Under the pieces are notes generated by a model, which saw only the letters and a list, made by a program, of their open reading frames with translations, ran no database searches and was not told the origin of the DNA. The translations under genes were made by a program, and so were the position numbers. Positions 3,295 through 15,828 of a stretch of DNA of 64,000 nucleotides are shown in pieces. The stretch spans positions 61,558 to 125,557 of the forward strand of contig SVRY01000001.1 of the NCBI GenBank assembly GCA_015064585.1. The letters run 5' to 3'. This stretch comes from Oscillospiraceae bacterium (lineage in GTDB: Bacteria; Bacillota; Clostridia; Oscillospirales; CAG-272). Within the stretch, counting starts at the first letter, position 1; each line of letters begins with the position of its first letter.

Positions 3295-3858
3295 CTATAC
3301 GAACAAAGGTAGTTTTTGCCTGCCGTCAAGCGCTTCTGCTATGGTGTCTTCCAGTTGTGAAAAGTCACATACGAGAGAGGAGGGCTTTTTTAAAATATCA
3401 TCCTGACACAGAGGGACAAAGTACACATTTTTCTTTTCATACAGCGTTGCCAAATTTCGAAAATTTGCAGAAAGGGCGTCGTTCGATGCCACTGCTAAAA
3501 CGAGAGGCCGACGGTTACGAAGATGTGCTTTGGCGGCCAGAGTGACCGGAGTATCGGATATACCGCAGGCAAGCTTTGCCAAAGTATTGCCTGTACATGG
3601 AGATATGACCATAATATCGGGTTTGAGTTTAGGTCCCACCGGTTCAGCGCCCGATAGTGTAGTGATAATTGGGCAGTTGACTGCTTCCTCGATTCTTTTC
3701 ATGAGTTCTTCCGCTTTGCCGAAACGAGTGTCGGTTGCAGAAAAATGATAACTGCAAACAGGAATAATGCTGTGACCCAGAGAGATTAGTTTTTCTAACT
3801 CAGCAAAGGCACGTTCAAAGTTACAAAATGAACCGCAAAAACCGTAACAGATCAGCAT
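3295..3858 (-). CDS. dpaB: Dipicolinate synthase subunit B (SpoVFB)
   Basis: 187 aa flavoprotein-fold protein (MLICYGFCGSFCNF...SPCTGNTLAKLA). It overlaps the dpaA stop by 7 nt, the classic spoVF pairing. Confidence 0.85.
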   Translation of the reverse strand: MLICYGFCGSFCNFERAFAELEKLISLGHSIIPVCSYHFSATDTRFGKAEELMKRIEEAVNCPIITTLSGAEPVGPKLKPDIMVISPCTGNTLAKLACGISDTPVTLAAKAHLRNRRPLVLAVASNDALSANFRNLATLYEKKNVYFVPLCQDDILKKPSSLVCDFSQLEDTIAEALDGRQKLPLFV

Positions 3859-4697
3859 ACCGCATCACTTCCTTTTTTCATATGACGTATGACTGCTTCG
3901 GCAAGAAATTCGCCCGCACTTTCTTGACAGTATTTTCCCGGCAGTCCGCCTGCTTTGATCACGCGAAATGGCGGTCTGCTGTCCAATGCGCCCGGAGACG
4001 AGGCAAGTTCAATATAAAGTAAGTTTTTAGAGGCATTTTTTAATTTTTCTTCCGTGAGAATTGGGGAAGGAATGGTGTTAAATATCAGATCTGTATCGGA
4101 GAATAGTATGGGATCGGTGGGGCAGAAGACGGAATGCCCGTTTTCTATAGCTTCCTTTTGTACTTCTTTTCTGCGTGCTCCGATGAAGACCTTGGCTCCC
4201 AGAGCTGTTAAATGATGTGTTAAAATTTTTCCAATTCTGCCGTATCCCAAGACCGAACAACGCATTTTGAAAAATGCTTTTTTACTTTCGTTCATAGCTA
4301 CCAACAGAGCTGCCTCCGCTGTGGCGCGGGCATTATTATTCAGATATATTTCGTCATATGCCAGATCTATGATCCGATTGGAAAGCATTATATTGCAATT
4401 CTTATTGTTCCATAGAAAGATAACCGCATTTTGCGGCATTACTTGCAGAAGATCGTTCAGAGCAATTGTATTTTCGTATAGGGGCGTAAATAGGAAATTA
4501 TTCTTTTTTATGCTTGGTATGGGAAGAAGAATTGCTTCTGCTGCGTCAACTGTTTCGTGAAGAGTATAGGGGGCGGTGAAACCTGCCTTTGCTGCCATGT
4601 CATTTCCATATACAAAAGGCGTAAAACCTGCCAGATTAAGGTTTTTTGCGGCAGGAATCTGTCGGCTGTCACCGCCGATCAATGCAATTTTTCGCAT
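3852..4697 (-). CDS. dpaA: Dipicolinate synthase subunit A (SpoVFA)
   Basis: 281 aa. N-terminus MRKIALIGGDSRQ and Rossmann motif VLGYGRIGK as in DpaA; immediately upstream of dpaB. Confidence 0.85.
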   Translation of the reverse strand: MRKIALIGGDSRQIPAAKNLNLAGFTPFVYGNDMAAKAGFTAPYTLHETVDAAEAILLPIPSIKKNNFLFTPLYENTIALNDLLQVMPQNAVIFLWNNKNCNIMLSNRIIDLAYDEIYLNNNARATAEAALLVAMNESKKAFFKMRCSVLGYGRIGKILTHHLTALGAKVFIGARRKEVQKEAIENGHSVFCPTDPILFSDTDLIFNTIPSPILTEEKLKNASKNLLYIELASSPGALDSRPPFRVIKAGGLPGKYCQESAGEFLAEAVIRHMKKGSDAVC

Positions 4698-4834: not shown

Positions 4835-5803
4835 TTATTGGTGCATTCTTTTTTGCTGTCGTATATCGGTTCCTTGCAGGCGGAAAAAAATAAATTCACC
4901 AAACAGACGGCTGGCAATACGGTCATCGTATCGATTTCGGATTTCGCTTGAGGAAAGATTGGTATTGATAATAATGGGACGCCCCGCGTTCATGCGGCTG
5001 TTAATAAGGTTGTACATACTGGCAATGGTAAAACTATTGCCCATTTCGGTTCCAAAATCATCGATGATCAATAGATCACAGCGGAAGTACTGCTCGGTAC
5101 GATCAGGGGAGTCATCTTTATAGTTTCTGCCAAATCGCTCATATTCAAAATCGGACAGTAGATTTTGTGCGCTTGTATATACACAGTCATAACCGCCGCG
5201 AATAACTTCTTGCCCAATTGCCGTGGAAAGATGGGTTTTGCCTAAGCCTGTAGCACCGGTTAAAAGAATATTTTCACTTGTTTTTTCCGAAAACTCAGCG
5301 GCATAACGGCGGCAAAAGGACAGCACGGCACTCATATTTTCGGGATCGCTGTAATAATGCAAAGAAAAGTTCTCGAAGGTTTGTTTTTCAGGAAGTTTTC
5401 CCAATCCGGAACGGGCAACACCTGCACGGAAAAGTGCTTCTCTCAGGCATGTGCACATTTTGCCATTGCAGTAGCCGGTATCTTCACAGGAACTGCATTC
5501 GAATTTAGGGTCGGTATAATTGACAGGGTATCCTCTTTTTTGCAGATATTCTTCTCGTTTGGCAAGCAGTAGTTCGTTTTCTTCCTTTAATGCCTGCATA
5601 CGTTCTTCCAATCCGAGTTTGCCCATACGAATTGCTTCCATAATGCGAAGCCCGGTGGTTTTTAAGATCATATCCACTTCGCGGATTTCGGGATATTTAT
5701 TGTCCAGTTCCTCCAAACGTTGGTCTGCAGCGGAAATTGCCTTTCTGCGCTTTTTTTCCAGTTCTGCCTTTACACTTGCATACATTTGCGGATTGTAACT
5801 CAT
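4835..5803 (-). CDS. DnaC/DnaI-type AAA+ helicase-loader ATPase
   Basis: 322 aa. Walker A LLTGATGLGKTHL, Walker B LLIIDDFG, Cys cluster CSSCEDTGYCNGKMCTC. Its start overlaps the dnaD-like stop by 4 nt (5800-5803). Confidence 0.8.
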   Translation of the reverse strand: MSYNPQMYASVKAELEKKRRKAISAADQRLEELDNKYPEIREVDMILKTTGLRIMEAIRMGKLGLEERMQALKEENELLLAKREEYLQKRGYPVNYTDPKFECSSCEDTGYCNGKMCTCLREALFRAGVARSGLGKLPEKQTFENFSLHYYSDPENMSAVLSFCRRYAAEFSEKTSENILLTGATGLGKTHLSTAIGQEVIRGGYDCVYTSAQNLLSDFEYERFGRNYKDDSPDRTEQYFRCDLLIIDDFGTEMGNSFTIASMYNLINSRMNAGRPIIINTNLSSSEIRNRYDDRIASRLFGEFIFFRLQGTDIRQQKRMHQ

Positions 5804-6843
5804 TTTTTGTCTCCGTTTTGCTTTTCGCGTGCCAGTTCCATGCTTTTTTGCAGCGCGATATCAAAAAACTCATCTGTGTTAAAGCTGCTTTCAGCAAAAG
5901 TCGGCGAAGGCTCGCTCTTTTTGCTGTATTGCTTTTTCATTTCGTTTTTGCGTTCTTCTATGCAGTTTTCCGCATCTTTTAGCGTAGTAACGCCTTTTTC
6001 CTTCCAACTGCGAAGAATTGTATTCATGAGGCTGACAGCTGCTTTCCCGCTGGAATCAACGGTTTTATCATATGCCAACTGTAGAATTTCATCTGTAAAG
6101 CCGAATTCTGCCCATTCAGCGAAAAATTTCTTTTCACGGGTGGAGAGTGCGCGCATGCCGATCCCCATCATTGTACGCATTTTTCCTTCAAACGAGGAGT
6201 TTTTTTCTCTTTGTTCGATATACGCTTCCAGAGCTGCCAGGGAATCTATATTGTTATGGTATAGCTCAGTTGCCGTTTTGGCGACGTAGGCTACACTTCC
6301 CTTCTGAATGGTTTTACAGTAGTTGCAGAGAAGCAGGATATAGGCATCTTCCAAGCCCAAATAATCTGCTAGGCCAATGATCTTGTTGGATTCATGTACG
6401 CTGAATACTTTGCCGAGCATATTTTGACATTCATCCAGCAGTGCTTTAAGCCCTTTTTTTTCTTGCAGAATTTGTTCAATTTCACTCCCGGTATAGGACG
6501 GCATGTCTCGGGTTCCTTGAATAACTTCCGGTGCGGGCAGTGCCATTTGTACCGGTTCTTTGACCTCTGTACTTGGTGAGGGAGTGGATGCCTTTTTCTT
6601 TTGCAGCTTGCCTCCCTTTAAAATGCCTGCTCCCCGCCAAAAAGCAATGGAGATCTCAATTTCCATGGGAGAAACACCCAGTGCGGAGGAAAGCTTTGCG
6701 GCGTCGGGAGTTTCGCGCAGTTGAGGAGACGATGCCAGCAAAAGCAATAGTTTCAGATCCAGCTCTCCTGCCATATCCAGACGCATGAGAACTGATTCCG
6801 GTAAACAGATTACTCCGTTTCCGAAATTAAATTCATATTTCAT
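5800..6843 (-). CDS. DnaD-domain replication initiation/restart protein (DnaD/DnaB-like)
   Basis: 347 aa with two DnaD C-terminal-type repeats (AYILLLCNYC...; ILQLAYDKTV...ILRSWKEKGVTT). ATGA overlap with the upstream membrane-protein gene at 6840-6843. Confidence 0.75.
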   Translation of the reverse strand: MKYEFNFGNGVICLPESVLMRLDMAGELDLKLLLLLASSPQLRETPDAAKLSSALGVSPMEIEISIAFWRGAGILKGGKLQKKKASTPSPSTEVKEPVQMALPAPEVIQGTRDMPSYTGSEIEQILQEKKGLKALLDECQNMLGKVFSVHESNKIIGLADYLGLEDAYILLLCNYCKTIQKGSVAYVAKTATELYHNNIDSLAALEAYIEQREKNSSFEGKMRTMMGIGMRALSTREKKFFAEWAEFGFTDEILQLAYDKTVDSSGKAAVSLMNTILRSWKEKGVTTLKDAENCIEERKNEMKKQYSKKSEPSPTFAESSFNTDEFFDIALQKSMELAREKQNGDKK

Positions 6844-7310
6844 GTATGCTCACCTGTAATGTTTTCGTTTGGTTGCGGAGCAAAATATTTTTTGCCCAAT
6901 CGGGTAGCCATGCCCTCAAACCAAATCGCATCGTAGGGCGGCAATTTTTTGAATTTTTCGGGGGAAATTTTTTTGACTGCATTGCGATAATGATAACGCA
7001 AAAAAGAGGGGATGGAAATAAGAGGCAACATAAGCGGCCCAAGCATCAGCGTTTGAATACTGTGCCCCGCTTCATGCCAGGTGACATGTTCTGTGGAGGT
7101 TGTATCTCTCAGAAAAACGGCACCCATTTCACATCCGCCCCAATGTTTGCCTATACGAAAGCAAAGCAATGGTCCTACCCTTTCCGGTTTTTTGCCGCAG
7201 AGCATGAGTACTGCGGCAAAAAACAATCCGGGTATTGTGGATAATGCACCCCAGGTAAGGGACAAAAACCAAAACAAAGGGTAATAGCGTGGATTTTTAG
7301 TCAATTTCAT
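6840..7310 (-). CDS. Small polytopic membrane protein with HExxH motif (putative metalloprotease-like), function unknown
   Basis: 156 aa with hydrophobic segments (YYPLFWFLSLTWGALSTIPGLFFAAVLML; LMLGPLMLPLISIPSFL) and TWHEAGHSIQ. Its start overlaps the rex 3' end by 14 nt. Confidence 0.5.
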   Translation of the reverse strand: MKLTKNPRYYPLFWFLSLTWGALSTIPGLFFAAVLMLCGKKPERVGPLLCFRIGKHWGGCEMGAVFLRDTTSTEHVTWHEAGHSIQTLMLGPLMLPLISIPSFLRYHYRNAVKKISPEKFKKLPPYDAIWFEGMATRLGKKYFAPQPNENITGEHT

Positions 7311-7977
7311 CTTTGGTTTGACGCAGGCGGTAGCACAGAGTCATCAAAGAGTCACCCAGGTGAACATTTTGAAGAACTATGTCGGGAGAGAGATTGAGCT
7401 CAACACCGGTAAAGTTCCAAACGGCACCAACCTGCAGAGCGCTCAGACGTTTACCGATTTCAGCTGCGGCGGGTTTGGGAGTGGTGAGCACTGCAATATC
7501 AACATTGTGAGACTGGAAAAACTTTTCCAAAGTGCTGATGTGATATACAGGCAGTCCGGCAACTCTTGTGCCTACAACTGCGGGAGAAACGTCAAACAAC
7601 GCGATAGGAGTAACACCGCGGCGTACAAATGTAGAACCGTTTGCCAATGCGCAGCCTAAGTTACCGGCGCCGATAATTACGGCAGAAAAGCCTTCTTTTG
7701 CACCCAAAATGCGGCTGATTTCACCAAACAAATATTCAACATTGTAACCGTATCCCTGCTGACCAAAACCGCCGAAACAGTTTAAGTCCTGACGGATCTG
7801 GGAAGCTGTTACGCTCATCATACGTGCCAAATCGCCCGAACTGATACGTCCAATGCCCTTGGCAAGCAATTCACGCAAATAACGGTAGTAACGCGGCAGA
7901 CGGTTAATAACTGCTTTGGGAACTACGGGAGGGTTGTTTTCGTTTTTGTTTTCAATTTTGTTTTCGTTGGTATTCAT
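7297..7977 (-). CDS. rex: Redox-sensing transcriptional repressor Rex
   Basis: NRLPRYYRYLRELL...ISSGDLA...SQIRQDLNCFGGFGQQGYGYNV plus Rossmann motif VIIGAGNLG. Start re-set to ATG 7977 (GAAAGGA RBS upstream); the track's 58-codon extension to 8151 has no Rex homology. Confidence 0.9.
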   Translation of the reverse strand: MNTNENKIENKNENNPPVVPKAVINRLPRYYRYLRELLAKGIGRISSGDLARMMSVTASQIRQDLNCFGGFGQQGYGYNVEYLFGEISRILGAKEGFSAVIIGAGNLGCALANGSTFVRRGVTPIALFDVSPAVVGTRVAGLPVYHISTLEKFFQSHNVDIAVLTTPKPAAAEIGKRLSALQVGAVWNFTGVELNLSPDIVLQNVHLGDSLMTLCYRLRQTKDEID

Positions 7978-8078
7978 AGTAGAGTCCTTTCTAATCATCA
8001 TTTTCGTTGTTACCGCAGAAAGCTGATAATTCGTTTGTGCATGTTTATATTCATTAAATTTAACACAAATTGGTAGAG

Positions 8079-8193
8079 TATTCCACAAATCCCACAGGGT
8101 TTTCCACAGGCAAAAGGGATTGTCCTTTTCATACATGAGGGTATATCGCAAAAAACAGGTGAGATTCGCACACTTTCCACATAGTTATCCACA
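8079..8193 (+). promoter_or_regulatory. DnaA-box cluster (four same-orientation boxes) in the tsaD-rex spacer
   Basis: Matches to TTATCCACA: TATTCCACA 8079-8087 (2 mismatches), TTTTCCACA 8100-8108 (1), CTTTCCACA 8173-8181 (2), TTATCCACA 8185-8193 (0). TCCACAGGCAAA is repeated at 8103-8114 and 8188-8199. Confidence 0.45.
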
Positions 8194-8318
8194 GGCAAAG
8201 CTGTTTTTCCATTGGGAAACCACATTTCCATGATTTCCTGAAAAAGGAAACATGAGCAATTTCAGTTTGTAATGTGCTATAAGGCTCCGTCAATTTGACG
8301 ATATATTTTGATGTTTTA

Positions 8319-9335
8319 TCATCTTCTGTGGGTTGCGCTGGGATTGAGAGAAAAGTCGGAGAAGTTGCCTGCTTCAGCCTCATAATAAGCTTGTGCACCA
8401 ATCATGGCGGCGTTGTCGCCGCAAAGCGACAGCTCGGGGATATAGATCTGTACATTTCTTTTTTTGCCAAATGCCAGGACTGCTTGCCGCAAATGTGAGT
8501 TGGCGGAAACACCGCCTGCCAATACGAATTTTGTGAATCCATACCGGTCCTTTGCTTCGTGCAGCCGTTCGGTAATAGCGCCGGTGACAGCTTTGGTGAA
8601 GGATGCGGCAATGTCTTCTTTGCTATATTCCTCGCCTTTTTGACGGCAAGTATTCAGATAGTTGATAACGGCAGTTTTGAGTCCGCTGAAGGAGAAATCC
8701 AAAGTATCTCCTTGGATGGCGGCAGAGGGGAATCGGATCGATTTGGGATTTCCCAGTGTTGCCAAACGATCCATTTCCGCGCCTCCCGGGTATGGCAAGC
8801 CCATTGTGCGTGCCACCTTATCGAAGCACTCACCCACAGCGTCATCTCGTGTTTTACCCACCGTTTCCACGGTGGTAAAATCTGTGAATGAGAGTAGCGA
8901 GGTGTGACCGCCGGAGGTAACCATAGCAAAAAAAGGAGGTTTCAATGCGGGGTGAGAGAGATAGGCGGCGGCTACGTGCCCCATAATATGGTCGACTGCC
9001 ACCAGCGGCTTTCGGTTGGCGTATGCGTAGGCTTTTGCAAAATTTACACCTACAAGCAGTGCGCCGATCAATCCGGGATGTGCTGTTACACCTACCAGAT
9101 CCACGTTTTTAACGGTGATATTTGCCTGTTTAAGGGCATTTTCGGTCAAGGAGGAAATGGCTTCGGTATGGGCTCGGCTGGCAATCTCGGGTACAACTCC
9201 GCCGTACAATGCGTGAATTGATACCTGAGAAGCAACCAGTGATGAGAGTATTTTGCGTATACCGCTCTTTTCGTCCATTTCAAGGACGGCGACGGCGGTT
9301 TCATCGCAGGAGGATTCAAATGCCAGGACGATCAT
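8319..9335 (-). CDS. tsaD: tRNA N6-adenosine threonylcarbamoyltransferase TsaD (Gcp/Kae1)
   Basis: 338 aa. MIVLAFESSCDETAVAV...HMGHV...SGGHT...LAGGVSAN are typical TsaD motifs. Confidence 0.95.
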   Translation of the reverse strand: MIVLAFESSCDETAVAVLEMDEKSGIRKILSSLVASQVSIHALYGGVVPEIASRAHTEAISSLTENALKQANITVKNVDLVGVTAHPGLIGALLVGVNFAKAYAYANRKPLVAVDHIMGHVAAAYLSHPALKPPFFAMVTSGGHTSLLSFTDFTTVETVGKTRDDAVGECFDKVARTMGLPYPGGAEMDRLATLGNPKSIRFPSAAIQGDTLDFSFSGLKTAVINYLNTCRQKGEEYSKEDIAASFTKAVTGAITERLHEAKDRYGFTKFVLAGGVSANSHLRQAVLAFGKKRNVQIYIPELSLCGDNAAMIGAQAYYEAEAGNFSDFSLNPSATHRR

Positions 9336-10231
9336 AGGGATTCCTTTTGTGTATTGTTAAGTGAAAGATACATCAGTAATGCATCTTCTACCGGATTTTG
9401 GTAGTAATTTTTCCGTTTGGACTCATATTCAAATCCAAACTTTTCATAAAGCTTTTGGGCGGCGATATTGGACTGCCGTACTTCAAGCCGCAGGGTTTGG
9501 GCATTATAGGTTTTACAGTGGGCAATTACTGCCTGTAGCAATTCTGATCCGACGCCTTTTTCTCTGTTTTGGGCATCAACGGCAATGTTGTACAGTTCTG
9601 CTTCTTCAAACAGCACTGAAAAAATTGCATATCCTGTCAGTGTTCCTTTTTCTATCTTTACAATTCCATGGGTAACGGGATTTTCCATACTGACAAGAAA
9701 GGATTCTTCACTCCACGGGGTTGTGAAACTGTTGCGTTCAATATGGTAAATGGACGCCACATCGTTTTTGATGAGGGGTAAAATACCTTCACTGCGAGCA
9801 GTTACCGTTCGGTAAAGTTCCGAAACCCCGTTGCGTATGCTCGCAAGCGTTGATAGATATACAGAAAGATCACAGCCGTACGGATCGGGAATTTCATCAG
9901 GGAAGACTGTAATTTTATCACGATACTGCGGAAAATGGGTACGCAGTATATCAGCATGTTGATTGGTGATCCCGACCACGAGATCTGCGTTTTGCAGGTC
10001 TTCTTTTGAAATTTGACGAGATAAGTGATTGGGATAAGGGGCGCGCGTGTCGATGGGTGTGCCTGTAAAACGCAGAGCTTCCAATGAACCATGGCTTATG
10101 GCATCGCCCGGATAGGCATGGAGTCCTGCTGAAGCAGCAGAACAGTTTGGATCATGTAAGGCGTTGAGCAAAGCGGCAGCCATAGGTGAACGGCAGGTGT
10201 TTCCGGAACAAACAAAAAGTATGTTTTTCAT
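9332..10231 (-). CDS. Fusion protein: N-terminal low-molecular-weight protein (Tyr/Arg) phosphatase plus C-terminal RimI-type GNAT N-acetyltransferase
   Basis: Residues 1-145 carry the CX5R(S) loop (CSGNTCRS) and DPYG. Residues ~150-299 are RimI-like (TPWSEESF...NIAVDAQNREKGVGSELL...LEVRQSNIAAQKLYEKFGF). ATGA overlap with tsaD at 9332-9335. Confidence 0.85.
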   Translation of the reverse strand: MKNILFVCSGNTCRSPMAAALLNALHDPNCSAASAGLHAYPGDAISHGSLEALRFTGTPIDTRAPYPNHLSRQISKEDLQNADLVVGITNQHADILRTHFPQYRDKITVFPDEIPDPYGCDLSVYLSTLASIRNGVSELYRTVTARSEGILPLIKNDVASIYHIERNSFTTPWSEESFLVSMENPVTHGIVKIEKGTLTGYAIFSVLFEEAELYNIAVDAQNREKGVGSELLQAVIAHCKTYNAQTLRLEVRQSNIAAQKLYEKFGFEYESKRKNYYQNPVEDALLMYLSLNNTQKESL

Positions 10232-10719
10232 CAGTATCCAAAGGTTCCGGTCAGACTGTCATCGTTTTCAATCCAATCTTGTACGGAATATTCGGTATAG
10301 GTATCTTTATCTTCGCGTACGATAACATTCCTGATGCCGGCGTTGATGATCATGCGTTTGCACATGGCACAACTGCTCACATTGCCCACAACCGTTTTAG
10401 CTGCGGGATCAATACAGGTCATATACAGTGTCGCACCTATCATAGATTCTCTGCCTGCGGCGATAATTGCATTTGCCTCGGCGTGTACCGAGCGGCATAG
10501 CTCATACCGTTCGCCGCGCGGAATGGAAAGGCGTTCTCGCATACAGTATTTTAGATCACAACAGTTTTTTCTGCCGCGAGGGGCTCCGTTGTAACCGGTG
10601 GCAATGATAGAATCGTTTTGTACGATGATTGCGCCAAAACTGCGCCGCAGACAGGTGCCGCGGCTGGCAACGGTTTGTGCGATATCTAAATAGTAGTTGT
10701 GTTTACTGACACGCTCCAT
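10231..10719 (-). CDS. comEB: Deoxycytidylate (dCMP) deaminase, ComEB family
   Basis: 162 aa with zinc motifs VHAEANAI and CAMCKRMIINAGI. Its stop shares 1 nt with the start of the downstream fusion gene. Confidence 0.85.
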   Translation of the reverse strand: MERVSKHNYYLDIAQTVASRGTCLRRSFGAIIVQNDSIIATGYNGAPRGRKNCCDLKYCMRERLSIPRGERYELCRSVHAEANAIIAAGRESMIGATLYMTCIDPAAKTVVGNVSSCAMCKRMIINAGIRNVIVREDKDTYTEYSVQDWIENDDSLTGTFGY

Positions 10720-10827
10720 ATAGTGTTCCTTTCGGTCTTTGGATATTTATCCACACTTATTATAGCGCATATTTTTTAATAAATCAAGAACATTTTATGT
10801 ATTTTTTTATTTTTTGTTGTTTTTTTG

Positions 10828-13776: not shown

Positions 13777-13851
13777 ATTCTTTTCATAAATATTGCTTAT
13801 CGTGCGATCAAAAAGTGACATTGATCCGGCGATATGGTGTTTTCGCGTAAA

Positions 13852-15828
13852 TTACTTTTCTGCTTCGGCTTCCTCTTCTACGGGTTCAACATAGTTTTTG
13901 TAGGTAACTTTTGCAAAGTTTACGCCGCCGCCCCAAGAATACTTAAAGTTGCCCAGTTCTTTGCTTACATAATAGCCGTTCTGGTATACAAACAAAGGCA
14001 TAACAGGCATATCGGCGATGAGCATGGCTTCTGCCTTATGCAGAATGGCTGCACGCTTTGTAAGATCCTTTTCAGCAAATGCCTGGTTGATCAGCTTATT
14101 ATAGTTTTCACTGGCATAGCCGGTTACATGGTCAGCTGCAATGGGAGCGTTGTCGTCCGCATCAGTTGCCTGGTTGTACTGGCCAAGGTCAATGGAGCCG
14201 CCGTTATAGAAGGTTGCATAGCTTGCCAATGTTGCAAACGGGTCTACCGACAACTGTTGCATATCAATGGCAATGATATCAAAACCGGCAAGAAGATCTG
14301 CGTGTTTTTCGGGAGTCAGTTTGTCGCCCAACAGCTTTTGCTTTCTTGCAGGAATGACAACATCCTTGCCGCCTGCCAAATAGCAAGCGGTATACAGGTC
14401 GAATATGAGGTTTTCATATTCGGATGCCAGCGGATCGTAAGTGGGATCACTTTCAGCTACCATGTTGATATCGTCGTAAACGTAGTAACCCAGTTTGCGT
14501 ACCGAGCACTTCAAACCGAGCTGCTTGTTCCATACGTCAGCACAGTATTCTGCAATTTCAATGGCAACTTCATCGGTTGCCTTTACGGTAATGGTAAAGG
14601 GAGTGCTTGTGTCGATGCCGGACTTCTTGATCAGAGATTTAGCTTCTGTCAGATCGGCAGTGGCATTGATCAAAACATTTTCGGTATTACGGAACTGAGT
14701 CTTGCTCTTATAGGTGGTTTCGAATACGCCTTGAGGAACAATACCTTCAGCGGGCTTTGCGAACACTACCTTTTCTACCAGTTTGTTGCGGTCAATGGCA
14801 AGCGACAGTGCGCGGCGCACATCAGCGCTCTTGAAAAGATCGTTGTTGGTGTTGAACAGATAGGTGTGTGTAGACAGAGTGTCAACGATGGTGGCACCTT
14901 CTTCACTGCGGTTTGCAAGCGGGAACAAAGCATTGACGAGTACTTCGCCTGCCTTGTACTGTTCGTATCCGTATTTATCGGCACCGGAAATTCTGGCAGA
15001 GGAATCGGCACCGAAGATGAATTCCAGACGGTAGGGCAGTACAAATTCGTTTACCAGATCCTCTTCGTCTTCTTCGATACATCTGAGGTAGTAACGGTTA
15101 CGTTCCAAACGCATAAGCAACTGACCGGAGCCTTCTTCGACAGAAAGGTTCTTCAAGAAGAAGGGACCGTTTGCAAGAACGATAGCGTTGGTGGATGCCC
15201 AGTCATTATCATCGGTTTTGTTAACGGCAGTGTCACGCAACGGCACGAGTGCGGGGCTTGCCAAGTATTCAAGGAAAAGATCCATGTTGGGCTTTTCGGC
15301 AAAGGTGATACGGAGGGTATCACTGTCAACTGCCTGCGCGCCAAGGTCGAACTTGGTGATCTCGCCTACGGCGTTTCTGATCTCATAGGCGTTTTCTATC
15401 ATGTACAGCATGCTTGCTGCGGGAGATTGGTTGGCAGGATCCAGAATCCGTCTCCAAGCATATACGAAATCGTCTGCTTTAACAGTGACCTGGTCGTTCC
15501 AACGAGTTTCACGAATGGTGATTTCAATGATATAGGTTTCGGTCTTGTCGTCATTTTCGATCCATTTGTAACCGGTAGCAAGACCCTTTACGACCTTGCC
15601 TTTTGCGTCATACTTATACAGACCTTCATACATCAAGCTCAGCAAAGATGCGGCGGTGTTGTCAAGGTATGCAAGCTGTGGGTCAAATGTGGTGGGAATT
15701 TCCGAAAAATACACGGGAATGATCGGTCCGGTGTAGTCCTCGTTGTATTTCTCACCGCATCCGGCAAATGTAAAGCATGCGGATGCAAGCATAATGAGGC
15801 AAAGAATAGCGGATAATACTTTTTTCAT
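13852..15828 (-). CDS. ABC transporter substrate-binding lipoprotein, family 5 (peptide/nickel, OppA-like)
   Basis: 658 aa. Signal peptide with lipobox (LASACFTFAGC). Length and motifs fit SBP family 5. The codon-aligned 660-aa plus-strand ORF is antisense noise. Confidence 0.9.
   Translation of the reverse strand: MKKVLSAILCLIMLASACFTFAGCGEKYNEDYTGPIIPVYFSEIPTTFDPQLAYLDNTAASLLSLMYEGLYKYDAKGKVVKGLATGYKWIENDDKTETYIIEITIRETRWNDQVTVKADDFVYAWRRILDPANQSPAASMLYMIENAYEIRNAVGEITKFDLGAQAVDSDTLRITFAEKPNMDLFLEYLASPALVPLRDTAVNKTDDNDWASTNAIVLANGPFFLKNLSVEEGSGQLLMRLERNRYYLRCIEEDEEDLVNEFVLPYRLEFIFGADSSARISGADKYGYEQYKAGEVLVNALFPLANRSEEGATIVDTLSTHTYLFNTNNDLFKSADVRRALSLAIDRNKLVEKVVFAKPAEGIVPQGVFETTYKSKTQFRNTENVLINATADLTEAKSLIKKSGIDTSTPFTITVKATDEVAIEIAEYCADVWNKQLGLKCSVRKLGYYVYDDINMVAESDPTYDPLASEYENLIFDLYTACYLAGGKDVVIPARKQKLLGDKLTPEKHADLLAGFDIIAIDMQQLSVDPFATLASYATFYNGGSIDLGQYNQATDADDNAPIAADHVTGYASENYNKLINQAFAEKDLTKRAAILHKAEAMLIADMPVMPLFVYQNGYYVSKELGNFKYSWGGGVNFAKVTYKNYVEPVEEEAEAEK

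Follow-up and report, generated by a model that had tools for sequence, protein, structure and literature searches.

A predicted DnaA-box cluster conserved downstream of tsaD in an Oscillospiraceae bacterium, a likely counterpart of the post-gcp cluster of Bacillus subtilis

The sequence analyzed here, referred to as the window, is a 64-kb stretch of contig SVRY01000001.1 from an Oscillospiraceae bacterium (GCA_015064585.1), and all coordinates are window positions. All genes around the cluster described below are encoded on the minus strand. In the direction of transcription, they comprise a tadA-like deaminase gene (10231–10719), a rimI acetyltransferase gene fused to a low-molecular-weight phosphatase domain (9332–10231), tsaD, also known as gcp (8319–9335; Pfam TsaD, E = 4e-85; 47% identity to B. 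subtilis TsaD), rex (7297–7977; NCBIfam Rex equivalog at 262.9 bits, cutoff 233, with Pfam matches as well), a 156-amino-acid open reading frame (ORF) without annotation (6840–7310), a gene for a DnaD-domain protein, here called dnaD-like (5800–6843; Pfam DnaB_2 and NCBIfam DnaD_dom), and a gene for a DnaC/DnaI-family AAA+ ATPase, here called dnaI-like (4835–5803; PRK06835). The Pfam and NCBIfam matches agree with an earlier note on this DNA, made from the sequence alone, which had named tsaD, rex, and the dnaD-like and dnaC/dnaI-like genes as neighbors of the spacer. The rex, dnaD-like, and dnaI-like genes run in the same direction as tsaD and are packed tightly. The tsaD-rex spacer (7978–8318; 341 nt) is among the approximately four longest noncoding stretches of the window on a crude ORF map. 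Copies of the spacer in four further metagenome samples of this organism are near-identical to it (mean column identity, 99%) and uninformative for footprinting. The presence of dpaA and dpaB marks the organism as a spore former.

Four plus-strand DnaA-box 9-mers had been claimed for the tsaD-rex spacer, and all of them are present: TATTCCACA at 8079–8087 (two mismatches), TTTTCCACA at 8100–8108 (one mismatch), CTTTCCACA at 8173–8181 (two mismatches), and TTATCCACA at 8185–8193 (exact). Two degenerate further boxes, AATCCCACA at 8088–8096 and ATTCGCACA at 8164–8172 (also plus-strand readings), lie in register with these and complete two modules on the minus strand, each of which is 30 bp long and consists of three head-to-tail 9-mers in the layout box-3 nt-box-box. 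The tsaD-proximal module A (8193–8164) reads 5′-TGTGGATAA cta TGTGGAAAG TGTGCGAAT-3′ and contains the exact box (8185–8193), a two-mismatch box (8173–8181), and a degenerate box (8164–8172). The rex-proximal module B (8108–8079) reads 5′-TGTGGAAAA ccc TGTGGGATT TGTGGAATA-3′ and contains the one-mismatch box (8100–8108), a degenerate middle box (8088–8096), and a two-mismatch box (8079–8087). The modules are separated by 85 bp, start to start, and all boxes in the window read TGTGGAWAA along the direction of tsaD transcription. A seventh box, weak and read in this same direction (8216–8224; plus-strand reading GAAACCACA, minus strand TGTGGTTTC), has three mismatches and may or may not belong to the cluster. 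The 12-nt direct repeat TCCACAGGCAAA reported in the earlier note is present, but only as the core of a 45-nt direct repeat (8084–8128 and 8169–8213; 73% identity, 85-nt spacing) detected with a repeat finder. The first box begins 126 nt after the tsaD stop codon and the last ends 101 nt before the rex ATG, such that the boxes span 101 to 216 nt upstream of rex. By the published criterion, which allows one mismatch to the consensus TTATNCACA (PMC2533591), two boxes of the window qualify (8185–8193 and 8100–8108), and the rest of the module positions are occupied by two boxes with two mismatches and two degenerate ones. The clusters of relatives described below contain three to five qualifying boxes, and the cluster in the window is weaker than those.

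Within the window, the tsaD-rex spacer contains the sole 120-bp stretch with four boxes of ≤2 mismatches, although, with words of ≤2 mismatches at a background of 3.9 per kb, a single stretch of this kind in 64 kb is unremarkable. The exact box TTATCCACA occurs five times in the window against an expectation of 0.57. In Markov simulations matched to the composition of the spacer, four or more boxes on one strand, two among them at ≤1 mismatch, arose with a probability of ∼1.5e-4, a value that is not decisive genome-wide because several thousand spacers are available. Taken alone, the evidence from the window is no more than suggestive, and the cluster is only moderately unlikely to have arisen by chance.

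Relatives were collected by a TsaD protein scan of species-representative genomes, which returned at least 80 loci (L001 to L080), mostly from metagenome-assembled genomes of uncultured Eubacteriales, Oscillospiraceae, and “Flemingiibacterium”; the best TsaD identity among the matches listed was 66%. Box enrichment was counted over 76 TsaD loci among the matches listed. The 500 bp after tsaD in these loci contain 84 boxes with ≤1 mismatch, compared to 8.6 ± 2.9 expected from composition-matched simulations, corresponding to a box density of 2.29 per kb in this region versus 0.27 per kb elsewhere in the loci. The boxes favor the TGTGGAWAA (TGTGGATAA) orientation along tsaD, as in the window, by 66 to 18 (binomial p = 1e-7). 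When 8-mers were counted without regard to motif over the 400 bp after tsaD, TGTGGAAA (59-fold enriched, present in 21/76 loci) and GTGGAAAA (35-fold, 22/76 loci) ranked at the top. The comparison of related tsaD spacers that the earlier note had proposed thus reveals conserved boxes, enriched approximately tenfold, and on this sequence evidence we regard the repeats downstream of tsaD as a genuine conserved cluster of predicted DnaA boxes. Relatives usually possess one or two box-3 nt-box-box modules, often after a single inverted box, and the commonest box variant among them is TGTGGAAAA, not the canonical TGTGGATAA. The module layout recurs in distinct clades whose surrounding sequence is unalignable. 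The cluster was found in one Oscillospirales-like clade, in one clade in which a DUF6062 gene forms the context, and in three metagenome lineages whose TsaD leans toward that of B. subtilis. Most of the Oscillospiraceae and Ruminococcaceae loci listed that are more distant lack it, and three or more good boxes are present in only 18/76 of the loci listed; the cluster is therefore dispensable or often lost.

In most cluster-bearing relatives, the gene that follows tsaD is rex, as in the window, where rex is codirectional and the cluster does not lie between convergent 3′ ends. Other neighbors were also observed. The next gene is icd, encoding isocitrate dehydrogenase, in three loci (L002, L012, and L013), a GNAT gene in one (L064), and a convergent DUF6062 gene in four (L027, L029, L031, and L033), which places the cluster of the latter between convergent 3′ ends; in L023, tsaD and the boxes are directly followed by a DnaD-domain gene, without rex. 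Because the cluster stays after tsaD whichever gene follows, it is anchored to the 3′ end of tsaD rather than to a rex promoter. Synteny of the type tsaD-(rex)-dnaD-dnaI was found in 24/80 of the relatives listed, and in 14 of these 24 loci a cluster lies upstream of the dnaD/dnaI genes. Among the 10 syntenic loci without a cluster, eight are boxless and two (L018 and L067) have no more than one or two one-mismatch boxes in isolation; tsaD abuts the DnaD-domain gene in two of the 10. Since both the cluster and the synteny are concentrated among the closest relatives, their association is inseparable from shared ancestry.

The earlier note had equated the 85 bp of the window with about 8 helical turns. 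Distances between modules in the tsaD-linked clusters fall into three classes (73 to 75, 84 to 85, and 95 to 97 bp), and the sequence between the modules has diverged within each class. Box distances in these clusters have an apparent 10.5-bp periodicity, although the pairs are not independent and the loci are related; no such periodicity was detected in 81 nonredundant module contexts from metagenomes (R = 0.12, p ∼0.4).

The metagenome modules were obtained by scanning contigs for TGTGGAWAA-N3-TGT-N6-TGTGGAWAA, which yielded 120 matches whose neighbors were then examined. The middle 9-mer, which the scan pattern leaves mostly unconstrained, is usually box-like too. Modules of this type flank dnaA in four loci (L121, L123, L138, and L168), one of which, L121, is a textbook dnaA-dnaN origin with the module followed by more boxes, a run of TAC repeats, and an AT-rich stretch before dnaN. 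The module is located downstream of tsaD in seven metagenome loci (L115, L118, L125, L144, L160, L162, and L186), and in three of them (L115, L125, and L160) TsaD resembles the B. subtilis protein more closely than it does that of the window. It was also found upstream of rex or a DnaD-domain gene (L109 and L195) and, in 11 loci, upstream of mnmE/trmE, which is another of the six known positions of DnaA clusters in B. subtilis (PMC3245932). Modules use the variants TGTGGAAAA and TGTGGATAA interchangeably, and each of the two is found in modules flanking dnaA at origins. The window box TTTTCCACA fits the consensus TTATNCACA with one mismatch. Because the module flanks dnaA, the variants interchange, and the consensus fits, we take the repeats to be DnaA boxes.

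A cluster at the corresponding position is known from B. subtilis, where a DnaA peak was detected by ChAP-chip in the gcp(tsaD)-ydiF spacer (Ishikawa 2007, PMC2533591), in agreement with the earlier note. The box cluster downstream of gcp was termed “highly conserved” among Bacillus species in that study, and conservation at the gcp-ydiF position has been noted within Bacillus and Geobacillus (PMC2533591). In vitro, Smith and Grossman (2015, PMC4447404) obtained a Kd of 0.15 µM for ATP-DnaA and 10 sites at the gcp-ydiF spacer, a high-affinity location at which, at low concentration, ATP-DnaA was preferred 16-fold. Deletion of the gcp-ydiF cluster alone leaves the ori/ter ratio unchanged, and deletion of all six B. 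subtilis clusters leads to early initiation, which reinsertion of the gcp-ydiF cluster does not rescue (Okumura 2012, PMC3245932). Even the model element is thus without demonstrated function, having neither a single-deletion phenotype nor the ability to rescue the loss of all six clusters, and the titration of DnaA that the earlier note had suggested for the window is unproven on the same grounds.

We retrieved the gcp-ydiF spacer from a B. subtilis-group genome. It contains six boxes at ≤1 mismatch, compared to two at ≤1 mismatch in the window, and five of the six are in the TGTGGATAA orientation along tsaD. A terminator is followed by one inverted box and then by these five, which include an abutting pair; the boxes begin 48 nt after the tsaD stop codon, and the gene order is tsaD, convergent ydiF, moaC, and rex. 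The B. subtilis cluster, DBC[gcp-ydiF], and the cluster of the window therefore share a location immediately downstream of tsaD/gcp, tandem boxes that mostly read TGTGGATAA along tsaD, abutting pairs of boxes, and the proximity of rex to tsaD, and the single inverted box that precedes the array in B. subtilis is found in many of the relatives. The suggestion that the position relative to tsaD is conserved over a large phylogenetic distance holds, with equal place and polarity in two genomes whose TsaD proteins are 47% identical. The two clusters also differ. A clear terminator precedes DBC[gcp-ydiF], which is bordered by convergent 3′ ends, whereas in the window the next gene is codirectional and the search for a terminator was negative; the boxes of the window, mostly of the TTTTCCACA type, form two regular triple modules, whereas the arrangement in the B. 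subtilis-group genome is looser; and DBC[gcp-ydiF] is a DnaA-bound element of Bacilli, whereas the cluster in the window is a predicted one from an Oscillospirales-like member of the Clostridia.

Several other systems resemble the window cluster in part. Arrays at Firmicutes origins, represented by the dnaA-dnaN origin L121, contain the same box-3 nt-box-box module made of TGTGGAAAA and TGTGGATAA, but the window lacks the adjacent dnaA and dnaN, the trio-like repeats, the AT-rich unwinding element, and the switch in GC skew. The E. coli locus datA, whose function depends on an IHF site and a specific arrangement of boxes, has no sequence or positional homology to the window cluster. Like the latter, datA is a non-origin DnaA-box cluster, and it is thought to lower initiation potential; Firmicutes possess neither IHF nor datA (PMC13220808). 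At the DnaA-regulated promoters of B. subtilis (dnaA, sda, ywlC/tsaC, and yydA), box arrays adjoin a transcription unit, as they do in the window, but there the boxes lie in mapped promoters and expression follows the level of DnaA, whereas the window cluster tracks the 3′ end of the upstream gene. The gene ywlC, tsaC in current nomenclature, is like tsaD a t6A tRNA-modification gene. Both ywlC and yydA are negatively regulated by DnaA in B. subtilis (Ishikawa, PMC2533591).

One rival reading treats the cluster mainly as a DnaA-responsive operator of the rex/dnaD-like/dnaI-like operon, at which bound DnaA would repress or activate a spacer promoter and through which the supply of the helicase loader would track the status of the initiator. 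The earlier note had placed the cluster in the promoter region of this operon. The position of the boxes, 101 to 216 nt upstream of the rex ATG and ahead of codirectional, tightly packed genes, is compatible with such a role, as are the clusters upstream of dnaD/dnaI genes in 14/24 of the syntenic loci listed, the boxes directly upstream of a DnaD-domain gene without rex in L023 and L195, and the lack of a minus-strand terminator or stable hairpin between tsaD and rex. On the coding (minus) strand of the spacer, a standard scan returned neither a sigma-70-type promoter nor a terminator. A relaxed scan returned one weak, putative candidate for a rex promoter (8057–8085, minus strand), with an extended −10 element (TGtTAAATT, 8065–8057) and a poor −35 element (TGGAAT, 8085–8080) sharing bases with the final box of module B; this extended −10 would put module B at about −35 to −65. 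The same relaxed scan found no consistently placed promoter in 14 relatives, however, and thus no promoter position that is conserved relative to the boxes. The cluster persists before icd, GNAT, convergent DUF6062, or ydiF, where a role as operator of rex or dnaD is precluded, ten syntenic loci do without it, two of them with tsaD directly against the DnaD-domain gene, and ∼35 nt separate the last box from the start codon in L006 and L017. Because the cluster follows tsaD across changing neighbors, no promoter was found by the standard scan, and 10/24 of the syntenic loci lack the cluster, the assignment as a promoter element of the operon is not upheld. An operator as the main role of the cluster is possible but doubtful, and control of the rex, dnaD-like, and dnaI-like genes by DnaA is, from the sequence, plausible.

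The remaining alternatives concern what the repeats are. A functionless build-up of DnaA-like words in an AT-rich spacer would agree with the window statistics, since about one stretch of four boxes with ≤2 mismatches in 120 bp could arise by chance per 64-kb scan and the per-spacer probability falls short of genome-wide significance, but the cross-species data rule it out: boxes are enriched approximately tenfold at the equivalent position among the 76 tsaD loci, the strand bias is strong, the module recurs within unalignable sequence, and the B. subtilis group has a cluster of equal position and polarity. We therefore consider chance very improbable. Binding of the TGTGGAAAA-like words by another protein, either a regulator of the Spo0A type, a lineage-specific regulator, or Rex, would fit the predominance of TGTGGAAAA over the canonical TGTGGATAA in relatives and the sporulating lifestyle of the organism. 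The Spo0A box TGTCGAA also resembles the motif. Against it, TTTTCCACA is within the accepted DnaA consensus TTATNCACA at one mismatch, and TGTGGAAAA and TGTGGATAA replace one another within modules, including those at dnaA origins; as to Rex, no match to its operator TTGTGAA-N4-TTCACAA was found at ≤3 mismatches within 7978–8318, and the motif is not palindromic, unlike Rex sites. Another binder is thus quite improbable. The modules are of the origin type and lie beside DnaD-domain and DnaI-like genes, as might be expected of a displaced or second oriC next to helicase-loader genes, but the 64-kb window contains neither dnaA nor dnaN, and its cumulative GC skew climbs monotonically, without a change of sign around 8 kb, on which grounds the origin reading was rejected. 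In addition, whereas L121 has such features after its boxes, the window shows neither a DnaA-trio-like run nor a long AT-rich unwinding element beyond its own, and the counterpart in B. subtilis does not serve as an origin (PMC2533591, PMC3245932), leaving this explanation extremely improbable. The spacer also contains a 73-amino-acid ORF on the minus strand (8010–8231), which is called as a 71-amino-acid gene in two metagenome annotations (L203 and L205). Its translation is not conserved: no protein-level similarity was found in relatives (best tblastn E = 0.67), six relatives have no open frame across the boxes at all, and gene callers disagree on the region, so that a small protein was rejected as barely conceivable. 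A structured RNA (riboswitch, leader, or small RNA) was likewise rejected, as no Rfam match was found at E ≤1 within 7000–9500 and the tsaD-proximal 128 nt fold no more stably than shuffled sequences (z = −0.81), with no evident terminator or leader.

We consider it likely that the tsaD-rex spacer is a secondary, non-oriC DnaA-box cluster that acts as a landing site for DnaA and is the counterpart of the post-gcp cluster of B. subtilis. The spacer has the architecture, the conservation, the anchoring to tsaD, and the identity with origin-type modules described above, and we infer by analogy that DnaA would bind it in this organism, with whatever regulatory consequence may ensue. Most likely, ATP-DnaA would bind the arrays cooperatively via domain IV and form short oligomers, as on the B. 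subtilis site. The element would then be a chromosomal landing site for DnaA that buffers initiator activity together with other clusters. Because the next genes are codirectional and no terminator separates them from tsaD, the bound array would probably also damp transcription entering the rex/dnaD-like/dnaI-like operon; transcription that passes through the boxes, from tsaD or from a weak promoter in the spacer, might be impeded by bound DnaA.

A broader scenario joins these elements. An ancient landing pad at the 3′ end of tsaD would predate the split between Bacilli and Clostridia, its twin triple-box modules, set at whole helical turns, would present two DnaA oligomers facing each other, and it would have been recruited in Oscillospirales to couple the status of the initiator to transcription of the dnaD-like and dnaI-like genes, within a wider link between DnaA clusters and genes for tRNA anticodon-loop modification (tsaD, tsaC/ywlC, and mnmE). 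As a whole, we regard this scenario as rather unlikely.

The kind of element and its position after tsaD are already known in Bacillus and close relatives, and the literature searched, which includes three B. subtilis studies, does not mention the cluster outside that group. What appears to be new is its presence in Clostridia (Oscillospirales-like) and in other, unplaced lineages, the regular triple-box module that it has in common with origins, and, in this clade, its placement directly upstream of helicase-loader genes. The role of the gcp/tsaD cluster has been unexplained since 2007, and its single deletion in B. subtilis has no measurable effect. Because the site has been kept in distant gut Clostridia despite changed surroundings and a changed neighbor gene, we argue that it is under long-term selection. 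The finding is unsurprising to a replication specialist, yet it strengthens the case for selection on a functionally silent site. The natural variants, which differ in neighbors and spacing classes and include losses, help to work out which features of the site matter, and its position upstream of helicase-loader genes offers a testable link between the occupancy of DnaA and the supply of loading factors.

Exact copies of the DnaA box TTATCCACA occur five times in the 64-kb window (at positions 7236, 8185, 10747, 54499, and 63539), versus 0.57 expected from shuffled sequences. Two of the five are intergenic, and the remainder are isolated copies within ORFs or at ORF edges. Directly adjoining the copy at 10747-10755 is a weak box in inverted orientation, TTTGGATAT. 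The two form a pair (10738-10755) within the spacer on the upstream side of the gene string made up of tadA-like, rimI-phosphatase, and tsaD. Thus, DnaA boxes flank this gene string at either end.

In the clusters located downstream of tsaD in the window and in related loci identified by the TsaD scan (L002, L005-L008, L014, L020, and L027-L033), the module-to-module distances fall into three classes, 73 to 75, 84 to 85, and 95 to 97 bp, and the sequence between the modules has diverged. The three classes hint at helical phasing of the modules, a pattern that did not recur when the broader collection of metagenome loci was considered.

At two of the related loci, L004 and L010, the DnaD-domain and DnaI-like genes start approximately 25 nt past the end of tsaD, with neither rex nor DnaA boxes present, indicating that the helicase-loader genes can be joined to the transcription unit of tsaD. 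In the window, a 156-aa ORF on the minus strand (6840-7310) is located between rex and the DnaD-domain gene. Neither Pfam nor NCBIfam gave a match for the product, in which an HEAGH motif and hydrophobic segments are present, and all 80 of the related loci among the matches listed lack the ORF; the ORF looks like a lineage-specific insertion in the operon. The rimI-type acetyltransferase (9332-10231, minus strand) carries a low-molecular-weight phosphotyrosine phosphatase domain as an N-terminal fusion, and a two-part phosphatase/rimI match upstream of tsaD is also present in several relatives. Directly downstream of the DnaI-like gene are dpaA and dpaB (3295-4697, minus strand), encoding dipicolinate synthase, which marks the organism as an endospore former.

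Four copies of this organism from different JGI metagenomes (L202-L205) carry discrepant annotations: gene callers start rex at different positions, yielding versions of 226, 233, and 279 aa, and a 71-aa ORF spanning the DnaA boxes was called in two of the four. These discrepancies show that the DnaA-box region misleads automatic annotation. Elsewhere in the window, two nearly coextensive ORFs of approximately 660 aa each lie on opposite strands (13834-15816, plus; 13852-15828, minus; 13834-15828 overall).

Among the metagenome contigs matching the bare box-3 nt-box-box pattern (L081-L200), the module was located upstream of mnmE/trmE (11 loci), ftsH (9 loci), a sporulation-type sigma factor gene (6 loci), and an Amidase_3 gene (5 loci), and within the mutL linker coding sequence (7 loci), with some of these counts inflated by repeated sampling of the same species. 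One match, L121, contains a textbook-type dnaA-dnaN origin (1280-1560), in which the triple module and extra boxes are followed by a run of trio-like TAC repeats, an AT-rich stretch, and dnaN. This origin is a useful point of comparison for how an uncultured Firmicute uses its boxes.
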